A stretch of 64,000 nt of DNA from Escherichia coli (GCF_003790525.1 NZ_CP033636.1), one strand, 5' to 3'; shown: positions 6,121-56,366, numbered from the stretch's first letter. The notes: generated from the letters alone by a model not told the origin. Numbers and translations: made by a program.

Positions 6121-6940
6121 GGCACTGTTGCAAAGTTAGCGATGAGGCAGCCTTTTGTCTTATTCAAAGGCCTTACATTTCAAAAACTCTGCTTACCAGG
6201 CGCATTTCGCCCAGGGGATCACCATAATAAAATGCTGAGGCCTGGCCTTTGCGTAGTGCACGCATCACCTCAATACCTTTGATGGTGGCGTAAGCCGTCT
6301 TCATGGATTTAAATCCCAGCGTGGCGCCGATTATCCGTTTCAGTTTGCCATGATCGCATTCAATCACGTTGTTCCGGTACTTAATCTGTCGGTGTTCAAC
6401 GTCAGACGGGCACCGGCCTTCGCGTTTGAGCAGAGCAAGCGCGCGACCATAGGCGGGCGCTTTATCCGTGTTGATGAATCGCGGGATCTGCCACTTCTTC
6501 ACGTTGTTGAGGATTTTACCCAGAAACCGGTATGCAGCTTTGCTGTTACGACGGGAGGAGAGATAAAAATCGACAGTGCGGCCCCGGCTGTCGACGGCCC
6601 GGTACAGATACGCCCAGCGGCCATTGACCTTCACGTAGGTTTCATCCATGTGCCACGGGCAAAGATCGGAAGGGTTACGCCAGTACCAGCGCAGCCGTTT
6701 TTCCATTTCAGGCGCATAACGCTGAACCCAGCGGTAAATCGTGGAGTGATCGACATTCACTCCGCGTTCAGCCAGCATCTCCTGCAGCTCACGGTAACTG
6801 ATGCCGTATTTGCAGTACCAGCGTACGGCCCACAGAATGATGTCACGCTGAAAATGCCGGCCTTTGAATGGGTTCATGTGCAGCTCCATCAGCAAAAGGG
6901 GATGATAAGTTTATCACCACCGACTATTTGCAACAGTGCC
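6121..6940 (-). mobile_element. IS26 copy 1 (820 bp)
   Basis: 14-bp terminal IRs GGCACTGTTGCAAA / TTTGCAACAGTGCC at exact 820-bp spacing; flanks ggattgct / acttgacc (no target duplication). Confidence 0.95.
6173..6877 (-). CDS. tnpA: IS26 transposase Tnp26 (IS6 family), G184 reference form
   Basis: 234-aa [35 protein letters not shown]... with ...[10 protein letters not shown]... Confidence 0.95.
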   Translation of the reverse strand: MNPFKGRHFQRDIILWAVRWYCKYGISYRELQEMLAERGVNVDHSTIYRWVQRYAPEMEKRLRWYWRNPSDLCPWHMDETYVKVNGRWAYLYRAVDSRGRTVDFYLSSRRNSKAAYRFLGKILNNVKKWQIPRFINTDKAPAYGRALALLKREGRCPSDVEHRQIKYRNNVIECDHGKLKRIIGATLGFKSMKTAYATIKGIEVMRALRKGQASAFYYGDPLGEMRLVSRVFEM

Positions 6941-12363: not shown

Positions 12364-13236
<873 letters not shown>

Positions 13237-13345
13237 CTGTCAGACCAAGTTTACTCATATATACTTTAGATTGATTTAAAACTTCATTTTTAATTTAAAA
13301 GGATCTAGGTGAAGATCCTTTTTGATAATCTCATGACCAAAATCC

Positions 13346-13383
13346 CTTAACGTGAGTTTTCGTTCCACTGAGCGTCAGACCCC
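13346..13383 (-). repeat. Tn3/Tn2 38-bp terminal inverted repeat (IRR) downstream of blaTEM
   Basis: CTTAACGTGAGTTTTCGTTCCACTGAGCGTCAGACCCC. Confidence 0.9.
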
Positions 13384-13997
13384 GTATATCGCTTGCTGAT
13401 TACGTGCAGCTTTCCCTTCAGGCGGGATTCATACAGCGGCCAGCCATCCGTCATCCATATCACCACGTCAAAGGGTGACAGCAGGCTCAGAAGACGCTCC
13501 AGTGTGGCCAGAGTGCGTTCACCGAAAACGTGCGCCACAACTGTCCTCCGTATCCTGTCATACGCGTAAAACAGCCAGCGCTGACGTGATTTAGCACCGA
13601 CGTAGCCCCACTGTTCGTCCATTTCAGCGCAGACAATCACATCACTGCCCGGTTGTATGCGCGAGGTTACCGACTGCGGCCTGAGTTTTTTAAGTGACGT
13701 AAAACCGTGTTGAGGCCAACGCCCATAATGCGGGCAGTTGCCCGGCATCCAACGCCATTCATGGCCATATCAATGATTTTCTGGTGCGTACCGGGTTGAG
13801 AAGCGGTGTAAGTGAACTGCAGTTGCCATGTTTTACGGCAGTGAGAGCAGAGATAGCGCTGGTGTCCGGCAGTGCTTTTGCCGTTACGCACCACCCCGTC
13901 AGTAGCTGAACAGGAGGGACAGCTGATAGAAACAGAAGCCACTGGAGCACCTCAAAAACACCATCATACACTAAATCAGTAAGTTGGCAGCATCACC
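13384..13997 (-). mobile_element. IS1 fragment (614 bp; insB 3' end and right IR missing), abutting Tn3 IRR
   Basis: Starts inside insB (GTATATCGCTTGCTGATTACGTGCAGC...) and ends with IS1 left IR ...ATCAGTAAGTTGGCAGCATCACC. Confidence 0.85.
13667..13942 (-). CDS. insA: IS1 InsA (within truncated IS1)
   Basis: 91-aa ORF identical in most positions to insA of the complete IS1 at 5052-5327. Confidence 0.85.
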
Positions 13998-14043
13998 CGA
14001 TGCAGCTTTCGTCAATCATGACAGTTATGAGTTTTCCGGTTAC

Positions 14044-14367
14044 TTATCCATTTTTGCCAGCGTGTTCCGCAACATCTGTTTTACTGTTTACACAGCACTC
14101 TTCACGTAAGAATTCGATGATAGCTTCCAGTATTTCGTATTGAGAGACACACATGAGCGTTCGACTCTCCCGGTTTTGTGTGACGAGCCCTACTGATACC
14201 AGGGCTGAAATATGATGACTTAACGTTGATGAGGGAATGCCAAGCTGCTTTTGCAATTCACCTACAGGCAAACCTTGTTCTCCAGCTTTTACAAGATGTT
14301 TGAATATGAACAAACGGGTCGGGTGACCCAGCTCTTTTAGTGCTTTAGCTACTTCTTCCAGTTGCAT
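14044..14367 (-). CDS. arsR: ArsR/SmtB-family metalloregulatory transcriptional repressor
   Basis: 107-aa MQLEEVAKALKELGHPTRLFIFKHLVKAGEQGLPVGELQKQLGIPSSTLSHHISALVSVGLV... winged-HTH signature; divergent from permease gene. Confidence 0.75.
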   Translation of the reverse strand: MQLEEVAKALKELGHPTRLFIFKHLVKAGEQGLPVGELQKQLGIPSSTLSHHISALVSVGLVTQNRESRTLMCVSQYEILEAIIEFLREECCVNSKTDVAEHAGKNG

Positions 14368-14472
14368 GTGACAACCCTCTGTCTAATGATATTTCGATAA
14401 TACCAGAAATATCTTGACCAGAATTATATTTCGATTATTCTAGAAACGTAGATTTTGTCAAGAGGGTTTAGT

Positions 14473-15606
14473 ATGAATAGTTGGATTTCTATGCTGCAAG
14501 ATGCCGCAGAGATGTTTTTGTTTTTGGCCGTCGAGCTATCTTTGCTGTTTATTGTCATCAGTGCCGGTGTGAGCCTGATAAGGCAAAAGGTCCCGGACCA
14601 TAAAATCCAGCAATTGATAGGGGCGAAAAAAGGAAAAGGCTACCTGCTGGCCTCGTTGTTGGGAGCCGTTACCCCTTTCTGTAGTTGCTCAACAATTCCA
14701 ATGCTACGAGGGTTGTTGTCGGCGAAAGCAGGGTTTGGTCCGACACTCACTTTTTTGTTTGTTTCACCGTTGCTTAATCCCATTATCGTGGGGTTAATGT
14801 GGGTTACCTTTGGCTGGAAAGTAACTTTGTTGTACGCGATCATCGCTGCCGGTGTCTCAGTCCTTGCCAGTATCGTATTGGATTTACTAGGATTTGAACG
14901 TCATATTGTTGATCACAAAAACTCAGCATCAAGTGGTTGCACCACGAAATGCGATGATTCCGAAGCTTCGGTAAAAACGTCGGCGGGTTCCAGTTGTTGC
15001 AGCACTAGCTCGACTCAATTGCCTTTAAAAACGAGTTGCTGTACTTCATCAGCGAACCCCATAATTAACTTAAGGACGGTAAAGAACGAGCAGAACGTAT
15101 CAGCGTGTTGTTCATCAATATCATCTGAACAACCAGCTGTTAGCTGTTGCAGCAGCGAGAATCTGGGCAATGTGAATCTCACAACGAATACCACCTCTGG
15201 CCCAATAAAGTTAGCTATGAAAGATGCCTTACAGCAGTTTAAGGATGTTCTGCCTTATCTTTTGTTAAGTGTATTAATAGGTTCATTTATTTATGGCTTT
15301 ATCCCTTCAGAGTGGATTGCAGCTCATGCCGGAGCAGATAATCCCTTAGCCATACCGCTGAGTGCAGTTGTTGGTATTCCGTTGTATATCCGCGCAGAGG
15401 CAGTGATACCACTTGCATCAGTGCTGATGACTAAAGGAATGGGCCTGGGGGCATTAATGGCCTTGATAATCGGTAGTGCTGGAGCGAGTTTGACAGAAGT
15501 AATACTGCTTAAATCAATGTTCAGAATGCCTATGATAGTCGCTTTTCTGACAGTAATCCTGGGTATGGCCATACTTATGGGGTATCTGACCCAATTGCTT
15601 TTTTAA
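14473..15606 (+). CDS. arsP: ArsP-like permease (putative organoarsenical efflux permease) with Cys-rich central insertion
   Basis: Contains TPFCSCS motif (AVTPFCSCSTIPMLRG) recalled as diagnostic of ArsP permeases; multiple TM segments; ~90-aa Cys/Ser/Thr-rich low-complexity segment; SD AGAGGG 6 bp upstream of ATG 14473. Confidence 0.7.
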   Translation: MNSWISMLQDAAEMFLFLAVELSLLFIVISAGVSLIRQKVPDHKIQQLIGAKKGKGYLLASLLGAVTPFCSCSTIPMLRGLLSAKAGFGPTLTFLFVSPLLNPIIVGLMWVTFGWKVTLLYAIIAAGVSVLASIVLDLLGFERHIVDHKNSASSGCTTKCDDSEASVKTSAGSSCCSTSSTQLPLKTSCCTSSANPIINLRTVKNEQNVSACCSSISSEQPAVSCCSSENLGNVNLTTNTTSGPIKLAMKDALQQFKDVLPYLLLSVLIGSFIYGFIPSEWIAAHAGADNPLAIPLSAVVGIPLYIRAEAVIPLASVLMTKGMGLGALMALIIGSAGASLTEVILLKSMFRMPMIVAFLTVILGMAILMGYLTQLLF

Positions 15607-15630
15607 TAATAATAGTAAGGGTCTTCTGGT

Positions 15631-16450
15631 GGCACTGTTGCAAATAGTCGGTGGTGATAAACTTATCATCCCCTTTTGCTGATGGAGCTGCACATGAACC
15701 CATTCAAAGGCCGGCATTTTCAGCGTGACATCATTCTGTGGGCCGTACGCTGGTACTGCAAATACGGCATCAGTTACCGTGAGCTGCAGGAGATGCTGGC
15801 TGAACGCGGAGTGAATGTCGATCACTCCACGATTTACCGCTGGGTTCAGCGTTATGCGCCTGAAATGGAAAAACGGCTGCGCTGGTACTGGCGTAACCCT
15901 TCCGATCTTTGCCCGTGGCACATGGATGAAACCTACGTGAAGGTCAATGGCCGCTGGGCGTATCTGTACCGGGCCGTCGACAGCCGGGGCCGCACTGTCG
16001 ATTTTTATCTCTCCTCCCGTCGTAACAGCAAAGCTGCATACCGGTTTCTGGGTAAAATCCTCAACAACGTGAAGAAGTGGCAGATCCCACGATTCATCAA
16101 CACGGATAAAGCGCCCGCCTATGGTCGCGCGCTTGCTCTGCTCAAACGCGAAGGCCGGTGCCCGTCTGACGTTGAACACCGACAGATTAAGTACCGGAAC
16201 AACGTGATTGAATGCGATCATGGCAAACTGAAACGGATAATCAACGCCACGCTGGGATTTAAATCCATGAAGACGGCTTACGCCACCATCAAAGGTATTG
16301 AGGTGATGCGTGCACTACGCAAAGGCCAGGCCTCAGCATTTTATTATGGTGATCCCCTGGGCGAAATGCGCCTGGTAAGCAGAGTTTTTGAAATGTAAGG
16401 CCTTTGAATAAGACAAAAGGCTGCCTCATCGCTAACTTTGCAACAGTGCC
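15631..16450 (+). mobile_element. IS26 copy 4 (820 bp), G184N variant type, flanked by 8-bp direct repeat CTTCTGGT
   Basis: Exact IS26 IRs; 15623-15630 and 16451-16458 both CTTCTGGT (target site duplication of a simple insertion). Confidence 0.95.
15694..16398 (+). CDS. tnpA: IS26 transposase, G184N variant
   Basis: ...[15 protein letters not shown]... Confidence 0.9.
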   Translation: MNPFKGRHFQRDIILWAVRWYCKYGISYRELQEMLAERGVNVDHSTIYRWVQRYAPEMEKRLRWYWRNPSDLCPWHMDETYVKVNGRWAYLYRAVDSRGRTVDFYLSSRRNSKAAYRFLGKILNNVKKWQIPRFINTDKAPAYGRALALLKREGRCPSDVEHRQIKYRNNVIECDHGKLKRIINATLGFKSMKTAYATIKGIEVMRALRKGQASAFYYGDPLGEMRLVSRVFEM

Positions 16451-16559
16451 CTTCTGGTTTCATGTTGAACAAAGAAGACCCTTTAGCTTCTGTAATCCAT
16501 TTAATCAGTCTGAATGAAATAGATTATAAATTCTGCTCTGCATACCTGCTTAACCAAAG

Positions 16560-16930
16560 TCTCATGATTCTGATTGTCGGTACAGTGCCTGAATGTGGCA
16601 TATCTGGGAGGTGCTGTACCCTGTTGCATCTGCCGTTTCTTTCTTGACCTGCCGGTAGTAAAGTACCTTTTGATGCCGTTCCTGAGCGACCTGTTTTCCC
16701 TGATATTTACCCAGCGTATGTGCGAGTTCAACTCCCTGCTTTTGGCGCTGGCGGTCAATTTGCTCGACCAGCAAAATATCATTGCGGTGACTGTCCATCA
16801 GTAAGCGACCCAGTTCCGGTCGGTCAAGTTTTGTACCGCTGATATTCTCCCGGTAGTAACTGGCTATTTTATGCCCCCGCTCCTAAACAAACTGCTCCAG
16901 CATCTCTTTTGCCCGATCGGTGAACTGATC
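16560..16930 (-). pseudogene. degenerate serine recombinase (resolvase-like) remnant upstream of tnpA
   Basis: Minus-strand translation ...YYRENISGTKLDRPELGRLLMDSHRNDILLVEQIDR... resembles the SG.K.DRP.L..LL...GD.LVV..LDRL core of serine recombinases but frame is interrupted. Confidence 0.35.
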
Positions 16931-17133
16931 TTCCGTCTATGCCCTTAAATAAGTGCTGATGAACATTTTTTCACCGCATTACCGCATTTAGGTTATTGCA
17001 TTTAATCTATCGCATATAGGCTATGTCGTTCATTGTGTGCCGTCACGTTTAGATTATGGTGTCAGGGTATACCCTTATGCGATAACCATTTTTGTTAAAA
17101 ATAACGCATCGAATAATTTATGAGGAAAACTAT

Positions 17134-20121
17134 ATGGCAAGGAGGCAGATTCTTTCTCTGTCGGAAAGAGAATCATTACTGGCATTACCGGACGATGAGT
17201 TAACGCTGACCCGAATGGCCTATTTCAGTGAGCATGATCTGGCGCTTATCAGTGCTCACCGTAAACCCGCCAGCCGTTTTGGTTTTGCCGTCCTTCTTTG
17301 CTATCTGAAAAATGTCGGCTTTGCCCCGGATAAAAAAATCTCTCCCTCTGATGCGCTGCTGAAGCATATCGCCAGCAGGCTAAAGCTTACCGGGGATCTC
17401 TGGCCTGCTTACCTTTCCGGCCGGGATACGACCCGGCGTGAGCATTTAACCGAACTGTACCGCTATCTTGGCGTAAAGGCGTTCACCGGCAAAATACAGC
17501 AGGACTGTATTACGCACCTGTTATCGATGGCGACGCGCACCGATAAAGGCATTCTCCTAGCCGAAGAGTTACTTGTCTATCTCCGGCAGAACAACGTGAT
17601 AATCCCCGCGATTGATGTCGTGGAGCGTACCTGTGCTGAAGTCATGGCAGGCGGCGATAAAATCGTATTTCAGACCCTGAATGCCCCGTTAACTCCGGCT
17701 CACAGGGATGCCCTGGATCATTTACTTGAGTCATCAGATAATCAGCCTTCCAGGCTGACATGGCTTCTGCAACCGCCGGGTAAAATCAATGGTAAGAACG
17801 TGCTGCAACATCTTGATCGGCTCAGCAGCATTGAATCGCTGGCATTACCTGAAGGTATAGATCGTACCATTCACCAGAACCGGTTGCTGAAACTGGCGCG
17901 GGAAGGCCGAAAGATGAGTAGCCGGGATTTGACCCGATTTTCAGCTGCCCGGCGTCATGCGATCCTGGTGTGCGTGCTGGAAGAAGCCAGAGCCACACTG
18001 ACAGACGAAGTGATTGAGCTGCATGAGCGAATGCTGAATAGTCTTTTCAGCAAAGCCAAACGAACACAGGCTGAGCGCCTTCAGCAGACCGGAAAGCTGA
18101 TCCAGTCAAAACTGAGGCAGTACATCGATGTCGGTCAGGCGCTGTCTGATGCCCGTGATTCCGGTGGCGATCCCTGGCTCGCAATAGAAAACATACTCCC
18201 ATGGGCTGAATTTGTCGCCAGTCTGGATGAAACACGCCATCTCGCCAGAAAAAATAATTTTGACCCGCTGCATATTATTACCGAGAAATACAGCACATTA
18301 CGGAAATATGCCCCACGCATGTTGTCCGCTTTACAGTTAGTCGCAACCCCGGCAGCGCAACCTCTGGCTGATGCACTGGTTGTGATCAAGGATATGTACC
18401 GGAAGCAGTCACGTAAAGTTCCGGCGGCAGCGCCGCTTGAGTTTGTCCCTGAAAGCTGGCGCAAGGTGGTGATTACACCTGTGGGTATTGACCGGCAGTA
18501 CTATGAGTTTTGTGCACTCAGCGAGCTTAAGGGGGCGTTGCGCTCCGGGGATATCTGGGTTAAAGGCTCGCGCCGCTACAAAAATTTTGATGATTACCTC
18601 ATACCCGAGAAGGACTTTGACAAACTCACACCGGCACTGCCACTGCCCGTATCTGCTGATTATCATGAGTACATTACCAGCCGTATGACCCTGCTTCAGT
18701 CCAGACTTGAAGAGGTCAATGCCATGGCTGCCCTTGGTGAACTGCCCGATGTGGAAATATCCGACAGGGGCGTAAAAGTCTCTCCGCTGGATAACTGCGT
18801 TCCGGCGCAGGTTTCACCGCTGGCAGAGCTGGTTTACAGCATGCTACCGCGACCTAAAATCACGGAAATTCTCGATGAGGTAAACAGCTGGACGACGTTT
18901 ACCCGACATTTTTCGCATATAAAAAATGACATTACCCGTCCCGATACCCGCTTGCTCCTCACCACCATTCTTGCGGATGGCATCAATCTTGGCCTGACCA
19001 AAATGGCAGAAGCCTGCCCCGGGAGCACCAAATCATCACTCGAAGATATTCAGGCATGGTACATCCGTGACGAAACCTATTCAGCCGCTCTTGCAGAGCT
19101 GGTAAATGCGCAGGGGAAAAGACCGTTGGCGGCATTTTGGGGAGACGGAACAACGTCATCATCAGATGGACAAAATTTCAGAACCGGCAGCTCAGGCCGC
19201 TACGCAGGGCAGGTTAACCCGAAATATGGGCAAGAGCCTGGACGTCAGTTTTATACCCATATTTCGGATCAATACAGCCCGTTTTACACCTGCATAATCA
19301 GTCGGGTCAGGGATTCAACCCATGTTCTCGATGGCTTGCTGTACCACGAAAGCGACCTGGAAATCAGGGAACATTACACCGATACCGCTGGTTTCACCGA
19401 TCATGTCTTTGCCCTGATGCATCTGTTGGGATTTGCGTTCTGTCCGCGAATCAGGGATCTCCACGACAAAAAACTGTTTATCAAAGGGAAAGCAGAGAAA
19501 TACCCGGCGCTTCAGTCACTGATATCAACGACCAGCCTGAATCTGAAAGAGATCGAAATCCACTGGCGTGAAGTGCTGCGTCTGGCAACCTCGATAAAGC
19601 AGGGAACCGTGACGGCATCCCTGATGCTGAAAAAGCTTGCCAGCTATCCCAAGCAAAACGGACTTGCCAAAGCACTGAGAGAAATTGGCCGCATTGAGCG
19701 AACCCTGTTTATGCTCGACTGGTTCCGCGACCCGGCTCTGCGTCGGCGGGTACAGGCGGGGCTGAATAAAGGCGAAGCCCGTAACGCGCTGGCGCGTGCG
19801 GTATTTATGCACCGACTGGGAGAAATCAGGGACAGAAAACCGGAAAATCAGAGCTATCGCGCCAGTGGACTGACGCTGCTGACGGCTGCCATATCCCTGT
19901 GGAATACCGTCTATATGGAAAGAGCGGTCGATGCCCTGAAGCGTAAAGGGGTGAAGATCAACGAGCAACTGCTGTCGCATTTGTCGCCGTTGGGCTGGGA
20001 ACACATCAATCTGACAGGTGATTATATCTGGAAAAGCAACCGGATACCGGCTTCTGGTAAGTTTCGTCGGCTAAGACCAGCTAAAGTCGAAAGGTCAAAA
20101 AACAGCCTTAACGTACAATAA
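17134..20121 (+). CDS. tnpA: Tn3-family (Tn21-subgroup-like) transposase TnpA, apparently intact
   Basis: 995-aa [44 protein letters not shown]... to ...[45 protein letters not shown]; SD GAGGA upstream; stop inside 38-bp IR. Confidence 0.9.
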   Translation: MARRQILSLSERESLLALPDDELTLTRMAYFSEHDLALISAHRKPASRFGFAVLLCYLKNVGFAPDKKISPSDALLKHIASRLKLTGDLWPAYLSGRDTTRREHLTELYRYLGVKAFTGKIQQDCITHLLSMATRTDKGILLAEELLVYLRQNNVIIPAIDVVERTCAEVMAGGDKIVFQTLNAPLTPAHRDALDHLLESSDNQPSRLTWLLQPPGKINGKNVLQHLDRLSSIESLALPEGIDRTIHQNRLLKLAREGRKMSSRDLTRFSAARRHAILVCVLEEARATLTDEVIELHERMLNSLFSKAKRTQAERLQQTGKLIQSKLRQYIDVGQALSDARDSGGDPWLAIENILPWAEFVASLDETRHLARKNNFDPLHIITEKYSTLRKYAPRMLSALQLVATPAAQPLADALVVIKDMYRKQSRKVPAAAPLEFVPESWRKVVITPVGIDRQYYEFCALSELKGALRSGDIWVKGSRRYKNFDDYLIPEKDFDKLTPALPLPVSADYHEYITSRMTLLQSRLEEVNAMAALGELPDVEISDRGVKVSPLDNCVPAQVSPLAELVYSMLPRPKITEILDEVNSWTTFTRHFSHIKNDITRPDTRLLLTTILADGINLGLTKMAEACPGSTKSSLEDIQAWYIRDETYSAALAELVNAQGKRPLAAFWGDGTTSSSDGQNFRTGSSGRYAGQVNPKYGQEPGRQFYTHISDQYSPFYTCIISRVRDSTHVLDGLLYHESDLEIREHYTDTAGFTDHVFALMHLLGFAFCPRIRDLHDKKLFIKGKAEKYPALQSLISTTSLNLKEIEIHWREVLRLATSIKQGTVTASLMLKKLASYPKQNGLAKALREIGRIERTLFMLDWFRDPALRRRVQAGLNKGEARNALARAVFMHRLGEIRDRKPENQSYRASGLTLLTAAISLWNTVYMERAVDALKRKGVKINEQLLSHLSPLGWEHINLTGDYIWKSNRIPASGKFRRLRPAKVERSKNSLNVQ

Positions 20122-20144
20122 TTTTCGATATCCAAACTGACCCC
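20107..20144 (-). repeat. 38-bp Tn3-family terminal inverted repeat belonging to the tnpA at 17134-20121
   Basis: Reverse complement GGGGTCAGTTTGGATATCGAAAATTATTGTACGTTAAG; differs from the Tn3, Tn21, Tn1721 and Tn5393 repeats present elsewhere in the window. Confidence 0.75.
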
Positions 20145-20403
20145 GAATACAAGGACAATGCCGGTACCGCCTGATTACTTCTGGCGTCGTCTACAATGTT
20201 ACTCCAGGCATATGCTGCGTCGTCCGGGGTTTGTTTTGGATCTATGTCCAATGTCGGCCAGACGTGGCCCTGATGATTCTTGCCCTTTGTACAGGAAGTG
20301 ATTAAGTGTACTGAGCGTTCAGAGAACATTATCTTCCTTACATACCCATAGAACAGCTTTCTAAGAACGGTGGGCTCGGCTGAAAATTACAAATCAGCCC
20401 CTT

Positions 20404-20766
20404 TCACGGCATCATTTTGATTCTTCGCGTCTGCCCCAGTAAGATGACCGGTTTTCTGCATGACAGTGTTATTCCTAACAAACGCAACACAAAACCACGC
20501 CAGCCAGAGCAAATTTTTTCATTTGCTGCGTAAAGCCTATTGTTTTCTCTTTTAAGCTTCGCCCACTCGTTACAGAGGGTAACATCATCAAGCGCTGTTA
20601 TATGCTTCGCCTCACCTTCGACGATAACGGTATGGATACCGTATGCTGTAAATCTCATACTATTTTCCAGAACCCAGTTGCGGTATTCGTCGAGTCCACC
20701 TTCGGAACCGGTAGCTCTGCGCCACATTTCAATTTGCTTGTGTGATGGGTCAAGTGTACTTGTCAT
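20404..20766 (-). CDS. hypothetical protein (120 aa)
   Basis: ORF only; no recognisable motif. Confidence 0.3.
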   Translation of the reverse strand: MTSTLDPSHKQIEMWRRATGSEGGLDEYRNWVLENSMRFTAYGIHTVIVEGEAKHITALDDVTLCNEWAKLKRENNRLYAANEKICSGWRGFVLRLLGITLSCRKPVILLGQTRRIKMMP

Positions 20767-21408
20767 TGAAGCCTCGTCTCAGCGATAACGCTTGAAATAG
20801 CCCGCTTTGGTCATCATGAAATTAGCCATCTGACTGGCGATTTGATTGTATCTTACTCATAGTGCCCTACCTATAGGTTAAAAAGGGGCATTTTCGCTTT
20901 ATAGCGTGTTCAGCAGCATCAATCCTCCCAAGAAAGGCTGGCTTATTAAGCCGGTCCATCATTTTCTGTATATCTCTCATCAATTTTTATATCCGCCCTG
21001 GAGTGCACCGTTCAAGCACACCGATTAGGCAGATAGTCACTAGTTAACTCTTTACTAGTGACTAAATTCCATTGATATACGTGACAACGTCACGTCATGA
21101 AAGCTTTTAAATGCCTATTTTTCATACAATGGGATTTAATTAGGAGTAAATCCCATAGGCTTACATAAGGATGACAATTAAAAGCGTTAAATATCAACCA
21201 GATAGAATGATTACCCCCAATTAATGGGCTCATCACATTATTTCACTGGCTGGGGTTATTGCTGGCATATCTGAAAGTGCTAATATGTTAGTCATTAGTA
21301 ATTAGTAAAGCCTTTACTAAACGCGTTTCTACGTAATTTCTATAGGTTTTATAGTGTCCTACCTTTGCTCAAATCAAAATGTTCTGACATACCAAAATGG
21401 AGTGTAAA

Positions 21409-22227
21409 ATGACTCAAAACCAGGGTTCTGAGCCAGTACCGGCGAGCCGGACAGGGCAGCTCATCAGCGCCCGGGATATGGCCATGCAGAAATTCGAAGA
21501 AGGGATGCGGTTAATCTCGGAAGCGTCGGAACTGTGCGGTCTCTCTCTCTTCACCAGCAGAATTATGCAGCCCAACGCATTTGGTCTTCCGTCGTCACTG
21601 GATCGCACCATCGAGGAGGGGCGTAAGGAAATTGACCGTAAAACGTGGAAAAGGCTCTTTGAAGAAACAGGTATGGACCGGTACTGGAACCATAAGCAAA
21701 AAGAAGCCTTTAACGAATCCCTTCGTACGGATCCGCCCGTCGCTTCCCTGGAGATTGTTAAGGGAACATTACAGCATGCACTGGCTAACAGACGAGACAC
21801 CCTTGCAGAAGGTTTCGTTGATGTTCTCAACAAGCTTGACCGAAGTTTCAAAAGCAATGCCAGGCAATATACAATGCCAAAAAAGCTTGTTCTTCGGGGG
21901 ATTTTTCCTGGTGTGAACGTGCTGAGGTACAACGGTTTCTCGCAGGACAATCACTTTTGTTTACGCGACTTTGAGAATATTGTATGCATCTGTTCTGATA
22001 CTCCAACACCTGCAACCGGCGGTGGGCTGAGTATGGTCGACAGGCTGACGGCCATGAGAAATACAGAATTCACAGGCGAGGTCAGTGATGAGAATGGCTG
22101 GCGGTGTCGCCTGTTTGAGAATGGAAACGTTCATATTTGCATCGACAGTATCTCGCTTCTGAATGCTCTGAACGATCTTATCAGCATATATTTTGCAAAC
22201 CAGCTTCCGGCCGCAGGAAAAAAATGA
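21409..22227 (+). CDS. hypothetical protein (272 aa), first gene of a two-gene operon
   Basis: ATG at 21409 preceded by GGAG; stop overlaps next start (ATGATGA); low-GC island. Confidence 0.5.
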   Translation: MTQNQGSEPVPASRTGQLISARDMAMQKFEEGMRLISEASELCGLSLFTSRIMQPNAFGLPSSLDRTIEEGRKEIDRKTWKRLFEETGMDRYWNHKQKEAFNESLRTDPPVASLEIVKGTLQHALANRRDTLAEGFVDVLNKLDRSFKSNARQYTMPKKLVLRGIFPGVNVLRYNGFSQDNHFCLRDFENIVCICSDTPTPATGGGLSMVDRLTAMRNTEFTGEVSDENGWRCRLFENGNVHICIDSISLLNALNDLISIYFANQLPAAGKK

Positions 22228-23429
22228 TGATTGAAAATGATAAAGAAAAAAGCCTGAACGATGCTACCCCGCCAGAGGTGCAGAATGACATCCGCAGCGA
22301 ATCCACTGAAAAATCAAAGGAAATGGGTCGTTCAAGGTACTCATCTATCGCGATGATCGATTACTTCAATGCAATCGAACGTCTGTGCAAAGAGAAAGAA
22401 ATTAACCCGGAAAATATCGATCTGAGCTTCAAAGTTCACTGGCTCAGAAACGCTGTTGGCGGCTCGTTTGCAAGGTCACAGGAGATGTTCGCGGAGTACC
22501 AGAAGTATGTTAAAGAGGTTCCTGAAGAGGCCCGTTACCTGGATATACCCGATGAGGTAAAGGTTGCACTCGGCGATATTATCTCGTACATCACCTGGCA
22601 CTACCGTAGAAGCTATACCGCAATACAGAATGATAGTGTTAAAAAAGCTGAAGCACGTAGCATGCAGCTGGAGGAGGAGGTAACGCAGCTGTTACAGCGG
22701 CTTGAGCAAAGCGCTACCGATATGGATGAGCTGAAACTTGAGAATCAGGCACTACAGGGTCGATTAGAGATCCGGGACAGTACCGTCAAGGAGTTAGAAA
22801 CAAGGCTGAATGTTGCCGAAGCAGAACTCGAAACCTGCCATCACCAGTTAGATAGCACACGGCATGAATTGAGCCTCGCACAGCAGTCAAATGACTCACT
22901 CTCCCAGCAACTGGCTGAACGTAAAACAGAGATCGCTGGTCACCTTGAATATCAAAAAAAGCTGAACGAAGAGATCAACACGCAGCGTTCTGATAACGCC
23001 GGTCTTTCCAGACAATGCGACCAGTTAAGTCAGACTGTGTCAGATACAAAGGCAGAGAGGGACAGGTTTGAACAGGAATTGATTGCTGCACAGAACCTTT
23101 GTACTGAGCTGAAAAGTGCACTGTCCGGGAAAGAGGGTGACCTGGTGGCGGTGAATGCCGAGCTTACTGAACTCCATAAACTAAACGAGTCGCTGAGCGC
23201 CGACCTGAATAAAGTAACTTTGGTCAGCCAGGGCTATGAAGCGGAAGTGGCTGAACAAAGCAATGAACTCAAAACGCTCCAGGCCAAAGTAATGAAGCTG
23301 GAAGCTACCCTGGAGGCGGAGAAAACAATCTCAGAATCCCTAAAAGGCACCATTGATACATTAACTGGTGCAATGGCAGGGGGAGGTACTGGAAAGTCAA
23401 AACAGCCGCGTAGCAGAAAAACATCATGA
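22224..23429 (+). CDS. coiled-coil protein (401 aa), KfrA-like architecture
   Basis: Long heptad-rich, Q/E/L/K-rich central region (…LEEEVTQLLQRLEQSATDMDELKLENQALQGRLEIRDSTVKELETRLNVAEAELE…) after a globular N-terminus; translationally coupled to upstream gene. Confidence 0.5.
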   Translation: MMIENDKEKSLNDATPPEVQNDIRSESTEKSKEMGRSRYSSIAMIDYFNAIERLCKEKEINPENIDLSFKVHWLRNAVGGSFARSQEMFAEYQKYVKEVPEEARYLDIPDEVKVALGDIISYITWHYRRSYTAIQNDSVKKAEARSMQLEEEVTQLLQRLEQSATDMDELKLENQALQGRLEIRDSTVKELETRLNVAEAELETCHHQLDSTRHELSLAQQSNDSLSQQLAERKTEIAGHLEYQKKLNEEINTQRSDNAGLSRQCDQLSQTVSDTKAERDRFEQELIAAQNLCTELKSALSGKEGDLVAVNAELTELHKLNESLSADLNKVTLVSQGYEAEVAEQSNELKTLQAKVMKLEATLEAEKTISESLKGTIDTLTGAMAGGGTGKSKQPRSRKTS

Positions 23430-40908: not shown

Positions 40909-40928
40909 CCACATTTTTGCAACAGTGC
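40909..40928 (+). repeat. orphan IS6-family (IS26-like) terminal repeat
   Basis: CACATTTTTGCAACAGTGCC, ending in the exact 14-bp IS26 IR TTTGCAACAGTGCC with diverged subterminal sequence; no adjacent IS body. Confidence 0.4.
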
Positions 40929-41176
40929 CTTATAAATGGCAGCCTTATGTTTACTTGCCAAGATGGGCTACCATATGATGTTTTATACTGAGCAATATTA
41001 ATATTATCTTTAATGGAAAAATTAAGCCCACTAAGTGACCCACTGCTATATGGCTCTATTGTGAAGACGCCTGAGGGTAAAAATTTATACATGGTTGTCC
41101 CTATGTCTATTATTGCAAGGTTGACAATATTATTCGTTTTATAAATTTGAGCGTTTAAAATCACACATCAAAGCAA

Positions 41177-55547: not shown

Positions 55548-56366
55548 GGCACTGTTGCAAATAACCACGAATGGTAAGCTGAAGACTGTTTTAGCTAAAG
55601 GTGCAGCATATGAATCCTTTCCATGGTCGGCATTTTCAGGGCGAAATCATTCTTTGGGCTGTGCGCTGGTATTGTAAATATGGCATTAGCTATCGTGAAC
55701 TGCAGGAAATGCTGGCCGAACGGGGTGTGAATGTTGATCACACGACTATTTACCGTTGGGTTCAACGTTATGCTCCTGAAATAGAAAAACGTTTACGCTG
55801 GTATTGGCGTAATCCTACAGATCTGAGCTCGTGGCATATTGATGAAACCTATGTAAAAGTGAATGGACGATGGTCTTATCTGTATCGTGCAGTCGATCAA
55901 CGTGGCGATACCATTGATTTTTATCTTTCTTCTAGACGTAATACCAAATCAGCATATTGTTTTCTTGGAAAAATTTTAAATAATGTGAAGAAGTGGCAAA
56001 TTCCACAAGTGATCAACACGGATAAAGCACCCACATATGGACGTGCTTTATCACGGTTAAAACGGGAAGGTAAATGTCCACCAGACCTTGAGCACAGGCA
56101 GATTAAGTATAAAAATAACGTGATTGAATGTGATCATGGCAAGCTAAAGCGGATCATCAGGGCCACATTAGGATTCAAATCTATGAAGACGGCTTATGCC
56201 ACAATTAAAGGTATTGAAGTCATGCGTGCACTACGTAAAGGACAAGCATCGTCATTTTATTATGGTCAGCCTCAGGGTGAAGTGTGTCTAATCAACAGGG
56301 TTTTCGGTCTCTAAGTACTTTTTAAAGGGAACATCATCGACTCAAATCTCTATTTGCAACAGTGCC
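55548..56366 (+). mobile_element. IS6-family element, IS1006/IS1008-like (819 bp), sharing the IS26 14-bp terminal repeat
   Basis: Ends GGCACTGTTGCAAATAACC... / ...TTTGCAACAGTGCC; internal sequence and transposase clearly diverged from IS26. Confidence 0.8.
55610..56314 (+). CDS. tnpA: IS1006-like transposase (IS6 family)
   Basis: [105 protein letters not shown]... Confidence 0.85.
   Translation: MNPFHGRHFQGEIILWAVRWYCKYGISYRELQEMLAERGVNVDHTTIYRWVQRYAPEIEKRLRWYWRNPTDLSSWHIDETYVKVNGRWSYLYRAVDQRGDTIDFYLSSRRNTKSAYCFLGKILNNVKKWQIPQVINTDKAPTYGRALSRLKREGKCPPDLEHRQIKYKNNVIECDHGKLKRIIRATLGFKSMKTAYATIKGIEVMRALRKGQASSFYYGQPQGEVCLINRVFGL

Follow-up and report, generated by a model that had tools for sequence, protein, structure and literature searches.

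The 64,000-nucleotide stretch of Escherichia coli DNA analysed here (GCF_003790525.1, NZ_CP033636.1; hereafter the window) contains, at positions 13989-20144, what appears to be a remnant of an arsenic-related Tn3-family transposon. It comprises a repressor gene (arsR), a gene for an ArsP-type permease, a tnpR pseudogene, a res region, an intact tnpA and one terminal inverted repeat (IR), with a copy of IS26 inserted between the permease gene and tnpR. Coordinates refer to the window unless a comparison locus (L number) is given. From left to right, the features are:

13384-13988, minus strand: truncated IS1 of 605 bp, recognised by its terminal sequence, forming the left boundary of the remnant
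13989-14043: remainder of the arsH-arsR spacer; relatives without IS1 run on into arsH
14044-14367, minus strand: arsR, encoding an ArsR/SmtB repressor of 107 amino acids (NF033788, 63.2 bits, cutoff 55)
14368-14472: divergent control region of arsR and the permease gene
14473-15606, plus strand: gene for an ArsP-type permease of 377 amino acids (Pfam ArsP_1, PF03773, E = 6.7e-53, residues 10-374)
15619-15630: left hairpin half GGGTCTTCTGGT, including the left copy of the target duplication (15623-15630)
15631-16450, plus strand: IS26 of 820 bp, with 14-bp terminal inverted repeats GGCACTGTTGCAAA and tnp26 at 15694-16398
16451-16481: right copy of the target duplication (16451-16458) and right hairpin half (16459-16481)
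16562-16966, minus strand: tnpR pseudogene, delimited by alignment with the intact resolvase genes of plasmids pXXB1403 (L003) and pN17S347-1 (L006)
16967-17133: res region between the divergent tnpR and tnpA, with a 32-bp imperfect dyad at 17054-17085
17134-20121, plus strand: tnpA, encoding an intact Tn3-family transposase of 995 amino acids (NF033527, 1129.5 bits, cutoff 500)
20107-20144, minus strand: terminal 38-bp IR GGGGTCAGTTTGGATATCGAAAATTATTGTACGTTAAG, overlapping the 3' end of tnpA
20145-20149: GAATA, IncHI2 backbone next to the IR, as judged from the uninterrupted backbone in pXXB1403

The two sides of the remnant are separated by an IS26 that is flanked left and right by the 8-bp direct repeat CTTCTGGT (15623-15630 and 16451-16458). 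In total, eight full-length copies of IS26 lie in the window, starting at 6121, 9721, 10977, 15631, 42848, 49483, 55548 and 61503; the copies at 6121, 9721 and 10977 have the opposite orientation, that at 55548-56366 measures 819 bp, and a lone IS26 end is found at 40916-40929. Matching 8-bp flanks, either direct or reverse-complemented, were found at none of the other seven copies in the window. A preliminary description of this DNA had rightly singled out the copy at 15631 as the only one with a duplication, and had miscounted the copies as seven. The uninterrupted allele is present in plasmid pE16-1 (NZ_CP119727.1, L001), where the equivalents of 13000-15640 and 16451-22458 are contiguous at an identity of at least 99.9%, and likewise in NZ_CP101516.1, Citrobacter plasmids, pEL-ars2, pQJDsal1 and others. 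Thus the arsR-permease-tnpR remnant-tnpA-IR segment forms one contiguous unit, as the preliminary description had reconstructed, and IS26, a complete 820-bp copy with an 8-bp repeat and a known uninterrupted allele, is a simple insertion into the loop of a hairpin. The duplication CTTCTGGT upstream of an element labelled deltaTnEc1 has already been published in a 2022 paper on IncHI2 NDM-5 plasmids (PMC8920835).

Removal of IS26 together with one copy of the repeat joins GGGTCTTCTGGT to TTCATGTTGAACAAAGAAGACCC, giving GGGTCTTCTGGTTTCATGTTGAACAAAGAAGACCC and restoring the hairpin that had been proposed to be split in its loop. As RNA, the restored hairpin folds with -20.7 kcal/mol (z = -3.65), and none of 200 shuffled sequences was as stable; the opposite strand folds with -19.1 kcal/mol (z = -3.71). 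It is located between the stop codons of the permease gene (15606) and the tnpR remnant (16562). Since these genes converge, the hairpin could end both transcripts; it has a stable stem but only a weak trailing U run (UUUAGCUU on the plus strand).

TnpA covers positions 2-954 of the 954-position NF033527 profile, and is thus a full-length Tn3-family DDE transposase. It shares an amino-acid identity of 96.9% with the transposase of the Tn6901-type formaldehyde transposon, 74.9% with that of Tn2503, 74% with that of a Tn6535-like element of Hafnia, 56% with those of TnAs3/ISPa38 and 31% with that of Tn3. The 38-bp IR occurs once in the window, where none would be expected by chance, and an identical IR bounds relatives at L003, L006, L011 and L012. 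Among them, pXXB1403 carries a complete transposon of 6,901 bp (L003 2897-9797) with the same IRs, laid out as frmR-frmA-VOC-fghA, tnpR on the minus strand, res and tnpA on the plus strand, in agreement with Tn6901, Tn6399 and Tn7489. The identical IR and the TnpA identity of 96.9% to a lineage member assign the window element to the TnEc1/Tn6901 lineage, for which near-identical IRs and a TnpA identity of at least about 90% were required. In addition, pNDM33-1 (MN915011), one of the plasmids of PMC8920835, matches the window at 100% over 16459-20300. A literature search with the IR sequence found no paper.

As a Tn3-family unit transposon is bounded by two IRs and the window holds a single one, the element in the window is a remnant that cannot transpose. 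The left part with its IR is missing beyond the boundary with IS1, which ends at 13988, in agreement with the preliminary description. On the right, the IR abuts GAATA, which would be one copy of a 5-bp target duplication; its partner is not within the window.

A database search for intact copies carrying arsR and arsP, which the preliminary description had suggested, led to plasmid pEL-ars2 of Enterobacter ludwigii from antimony-mine tailings (L011; NZ_CP094843.1, 133172-173888). Two perfect inverted IRs, 40,717 bp apart and flanked by CTTAA, enclose a whole arsenic island, in which arsR-arsP are included, together with the same dead tnpR; the arrangement that would have contradicted the earlier proposal, with arsR-arsP outside the IRs, was not the one found. 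The arm next to the right IR is 99.97% identical to 16451-20144 of the window. Upon removal of the element and one CTTAA, the resulting 300-bp empty site is matched over at least 80% of its length by 463 IncHI2 plasmids, and the eight matches listed, R478 included, are 100% identical over all 300 bp. A literature search for pEL-ars2 found no paper. Similarly, pN17S347-1 carries a 30.8-kb ars structure with outer IRs flanked by TGCTT, the empty site of which is present in the window at 20999-21033. The window-type arm occurs in three different flanks, namely in the window, in pEL-ars2 and in the IncX1 plasmid pQJDsal1. The latter was considered as an intact copy and rejected: its island is cut after arsA by pieces of other transposases. 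The ars region of Klebsiella plasmid pKP187, which has neither arsP nor a transposon core, was uninformative.

The full element is thus laid out as an IR, an ars island ending in arsH-arsR-arsP, the hairpin, the tnpR pseudogene, res, tnpA and an IR. Taking the intact relative in pEL-ars2 as a guide, we consider it very likely that 13989-20144 represents, apart from the inserted IS26, the right-terminal 5.3 kb of a large unit transposon of the Tn3 family, whose core is of the TnEc1/Tn6901 type and whose cargo is an arsenic island; this bears out the earlier proposal of an arsenic-related Tn3-family remnant.

The left part of the remnant indicates how much of the cargo has been lost. Sequence of the ars island begins at 13989, directly after IS1, rather than at 13998 as previously given, and the IS1-arsR junction is common to about 615 plasmid records. 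The 55 bp that follow IS1 (13989-14043) are identical up to the IS1 end in L005, L006 and L007. In the relatives that lack IS1 (pN17S347-1, the Citrobacter plasmids, pQJDsal1 and pEL-ars2), arsR is followed by arsH, a sigma-factor gene, arsD and arsA, and, in all of these except pQJDsal1, then by a regulator, a TauE exporter, a GNAT gene, arsCBADR, a molybdopterin oxidoreductase cluster and more. Because the relatives continue in this way and IS1 abuts the arsH-arsR spacer, arsR and arsP are the final pair of genes in a large arsenic island. The suggestion that they occupy the place that mer has in Tn21 accordingly applies to their being cargo, and fails as to their being the only cargo, the island exceeding 20 kb.

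Compared to the intact resolvase genes of its relatives, tnpR is degenerate, as noted before: the codon of the catalytic serine, codon 10, is changed from TCG to the stop codon TAG, a second stop occurs at codon 28, and two in-frame deletions have removed 222 bp (junction 16751/16752) and 12 bp (at about 16640). The element in the window therefore has no working resolvase of its own. A 24-mer spanning the deletion junction in tnpR was used to scan genome contigs, and its single match, in an unrelated contig of high G+C content, was dismissed as a chance hit. In the adjacent res region, the 32-bp dyad at 17054-17085 is centred on the palindrome AGGGTATACCCT (17064-17075) and is the putative res crossover site.

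Within this dyad, the ars side of the element meets different partners. The window and pN17S347-1 differ at three positions over 13989-17085, and by about 4% from 17086 on. A plasmid of Citrobacter arsenatis (L007) is 99.7% identical to the window up to 17075, the tnpR remnant included, and then continues into unrelated DNA, with neither tnpA nor an IR. Moreover, pN17S347-1 has a second transposon at the opposite end of the structure, and the tnpA on the ars side matches that transposon's tnpA at 100% for most of its length. All three breakpoints fall inside 17054-17085, and at this putative crossover site the module of ars genes and tnpR remnant has acquired no fewer than three different partners. 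On the basis of these breakpoints, we propose that the arms may have been exchanged at res by a resolvase supplied in trans. At L007 8300-8420, the end of the island is joined to DNA upstream of a thermonuclease gene, which resembles the other half-site (ACCGCGATAACG compared with TATGCGATAACC).

Several other explanations of the locus were weighed. The hairpin and the 8-bp duplication might be coincidental, IS26 having arrived via a cointegrate or recombination between two sides that were never adjacent; most IS26 copies in such regions do lack duplications, as do seven of the eight here. This explanation is so improbable as to be negligible, since the same repeat flanks IS26 on both sides and the two flanks are contiguous in several independent plasmids, which already contradicts coincidence. 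A compact transposon, with only arsR and arsP as passengers and the left IR just beyond arsR, would account for the survival of only these two genes here and in some 615 further records, and small relatives with a short cargo are indeed known, the 6.9-kb formaldehyde transposon among them. However, every relative without IS1 leads straight from arsR to arsH and other ars genes without an intervening IR, IS1 borders on what is itself the arsH-arsR spacer, and an IR next to arsR was seen in none of the loci examined; the compact form was therefore rejected as highly improbable.

It is somewhat less far-fetched, yet still unlikely, that the ars genes were never cargo in the lineage leading to the window, and that a TnEc1-type element already residing in the IncHI2 backbone was joined later to an ars/tnpR segment via res or via homologous recombination with another plasmid. 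In favour of such a late joining are the Citrobacter plasmids, whose islands possess only the tnpR remnant and half of res without tnpA or an IR, the attachment of one ars module to two tnpA arms that differ by 4%, and the lack of a left end at the insertion site of the window. The same and further observations weigh against our interpretation of the window as the end of a large arsenic transposon. A left junction, composed of backbone ending in ACCTGAATA followed by the IR, was sought in plasmids without a contiguous match, and three Serratia records that hold both halves of this junction have them about 450 bp apart, indicative of a different insertion; with the left end missing at the site, transposition of the whole unit into the site of the window is a matter of inference. 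In IncF-type copies of the arsenic island, homology ends at 15607, and many plasmids with the island lack the transposon parts. Ordinary homologous recombination in the shared segment could explain the crossover in two of the three cases. The link to TnEc1 itself was taken from the literature. As for the cargo, public sources name the ArsP-type protein simply “permease”, and the substrates of both ArsR and the permease are predicted ones. Nevertheless, two other locations have the window-type arm (99.97-100% identical) attached to the ars module found in the window, and at one of them the transposon is complete, its target duplicated and its empty site documented; that an already assembled element moved is more likely than that one hybrid was created repeatedly and independently. 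We thus favour the large arsenic transposon over a late joining.

The window element belongs with the Tn3-family arsenic transposons, and its closest functional analogues are Tn6535/Tn6381 and Tn2502/Tn2503. With the Tn6901 lineage it shares the identical 38-bp IR, the TnpA identity of 96.9%, the divergent tnpR-res-tnpA arrangement and a cargo downstream of tnpR; at the DNA level, the Tn6901-type element shows about 87% identity with the tnpR/res query, and 94.5% in the remainder of tnpR, res and tnpA. By contrast, the cargo in the window is an arsenic island, whereas Tn6901 carries frmR-frmA-gloA-frmB for formaldehyde resistance and TnEc1 carries none, and tnpR is a pseudogene in the window. 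Tn6901, Tn6399 and Tn7489 have been described as cargo-bearing relatives of TnEc1 (bioRxiv 10.1101/2022.09.12.507718), and the segment present in the window has been labelled deltaTnEc1 (PMC8920835).

Tn6535/Tn6381, from the Hafnia alvei chromosome and IncHI5 plasmids (PMC6339943), similarly combine a tnpA-res-tnpR core with a large ars region, 38-bp IRs and 5-bp duplications. A Tn6535-like element on a Hafnia plasmid contains a homologous ars island, about 82% identical and in the same position relative to tnpR. It differs in TnpA (74% identity), at 9-11 of the 38 positions of the IR, in its resolvase, which is only 29.5% identical to the Tn6901-type resolvase, and in having no arsP gene beside tnpR. 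Tn2502 and Tn2503 of Yersinia (PMC3316555) are also Tn3-family arsenic transposons with divergent tnpR and tnpA and res between them; the mobility module of Tn2502 is likewise defective, and the TnpA of Tn2503 is 74.9% identical to that of the window (the Yersinia pestis Java 9 plasmid was compared by tblastn as NC_015055.1). Unlike the window element, they are 4.6-6.8 kb long, carry arsHRBC, possess 53-bp imperfect IRs and lack arsP.

The likeness to Tn21 is more limited. The TnpA of the window is nearer to the Tn21 type (56% to TnAs3/ISPa38) than to Tn3 (31%), and in both elements the cargo, at the opposite end from tnpA, consists of metal(loid)-resistance genes. In Tn21, res, tnpR and tnpA are read in one direction, whereas in the window tnpR (minus strand) and tnpA (plus strand) diverge from an intervening res, and the cargo lies downstream of tnpR. 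The gene order previously ascribed to the Tn21 subgroup is therefore not that of the window; the same order is found instead in Tn6901/Tn6399, Tn2503 and the Tn6535-like element.

Altogether, we propose that the locus might have arisen in three steps. A transposon would have inserted into a gene of the IncHI2 backbone, leaving its IR at 20144 next to GAATA. Everything to the left of arsR would then have been lost, an event of which the IS1 junction at 13988/13989 is the visible trace and whose mechanism we can only infer. Finally, IS26 entered the hairpin loop between the convergent permease gene and tnpR, with duplication of CTTCTGGT, which is seen on both of its sides. Even the intact relative has no working resolvase, and its cointegrates would presumably be resolved only by a related TnpR supplied in trans or by host recombination.

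The closest solved relative of ArsR is AfArsR (PDB 6J05), with whose ENCC the C-terminal EECC of the window protein aligns; no cysteine follows the C-terminal Cys-Cys pair. A two-cysteine site of this kind is reportedly selective for methylarsenite in one characterised ArsR. The control region between arsR and the permease gene harbours two 20-bp direct repeats, ATATTTCGATAATACCAGAA at 14389-14408 and ATATTTCGATTATTCTAGAA at 14426-14445, which are identical at 17 of 20 positions and may be the operator sites of ArsR. In the permease, the motif TPFCSCS (Cys70 and Cys72) is invariant in an alignment of seven homologues, and these cysteines may correspond to the closely spaced pair in a membrane helix that Campylobacter ArsP requires for transport; a literature search on the cysteines of ArsP gave nothing pertinent. 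ArsP permeases are characterised by efflux of MAs(III) and Rox(III), though not of As(III). The central loop of the protein in the window (window 14920-15210, residues ~150-245) is rich in Cys-Cys pairs and varies widely in length among close homologues (337-377 amino acids), whereas the membrane parts are nearly invariant. Given the family membership, the cysteine motifs and the linkage to arsH in the intact island, arsR and arsP most likely specify an efflux module under repressor control, whose substrates would be trivalent arsenicals and probably organoarsenicals.

The fragment in the window has already been described and is common debris of multidrug-resistance plasmids, not a new kind of element; nor is there a new principle, as arsenic transposons of the Tn3 family and res hybrids are already known. 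It is usually annotated only as “permease / ArsR / Tn3 family transposase” or as deltaTnEc1, and can now be interpreted as one end of a transposon that carried an arsenic island; this explains the presence of arsR and an ArsP-type permease gene inside the antibiotic-resistance regions of IncHI2, IncF and IncX1 plasmids. In addition, the comparison documents a 29-41 kb arsenic island that moves as a Tn3-family transposon without a resolvase of its own, and provides a clean example of module exchange at res. No name for the arsenic transposon with a TnEc1 core was found in the searchable literature.

Hundreds of plasmids have kept arsR-arsP intact, and among the matches listed, livestock and food are prominent sources. 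We tentatively raise two further ideas, either or both of which might hold, although we regard them as rather doubtful. The dead tnpR and half res might serve as a reusable docking point, at which resolvases of co-resident TnEc1-type elements attach fresh tnpA-IR arms and thus re-mobilise the island; and the organoarsenical pump might be co-selected with antibiotic resistance. If the latter is true, arsR-arsP would be retained as a working pump for trivalent organoarsenicals, co-selected by arsenical feed additives such as roxarsone.

Some further observations concern the surroundings of the remnant and of its relatives. To the left, the right IR of a blaTEM transposon of the Tn2 type (13346-13383) abuts the truncated IS1, and in pXXB1403 the same Tn2-type IR abuts the IncHI2 backbone instead (L003 11349/11350). 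An Escherichia albertii IncF plasmid (L008 14650-21460) contains the same block of IS1, arsR, permease gene, tnpR remnant and tnpA, with a TnpA that is 100% identical; there strB overlaps the 3' end of tnpA, and a second, IncF-type copy of the arsenic island is present on the same plasmid. In pEL-ars2, arsA is interrupted by a Tn21-family insertion of about 11.6 kb (L011 20845-32467), which includes Tn3-family tnpR/tnpA, a P-type ATPase gene and extra arsC/arsR, and is flanked by IS5075 and IS4321.

The same part of the IncHI2 backbone has received three independent TnEc1-type insertions within about 2 kb, namely the window arm at 20144/20145, the pN17S347-1 structure (L006 5578/36341) at the window equivalent of 21013-21018, and Tn6901 in pXXB1403, and this region may be a regional insertion hot spot. 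The second TnEc1-type transposon of pN17S347-1 (L006 28692-36341) carries genes for a cytochrome b and a CDF transporter, plus IS110; its resolvase gene is apparently intact, and its tnpA has a 3' deletion (940 amino acids). The same cytochrome b/CDF cargo and IR are found on a Hafnia alvei plasmid (L014 1-3720).

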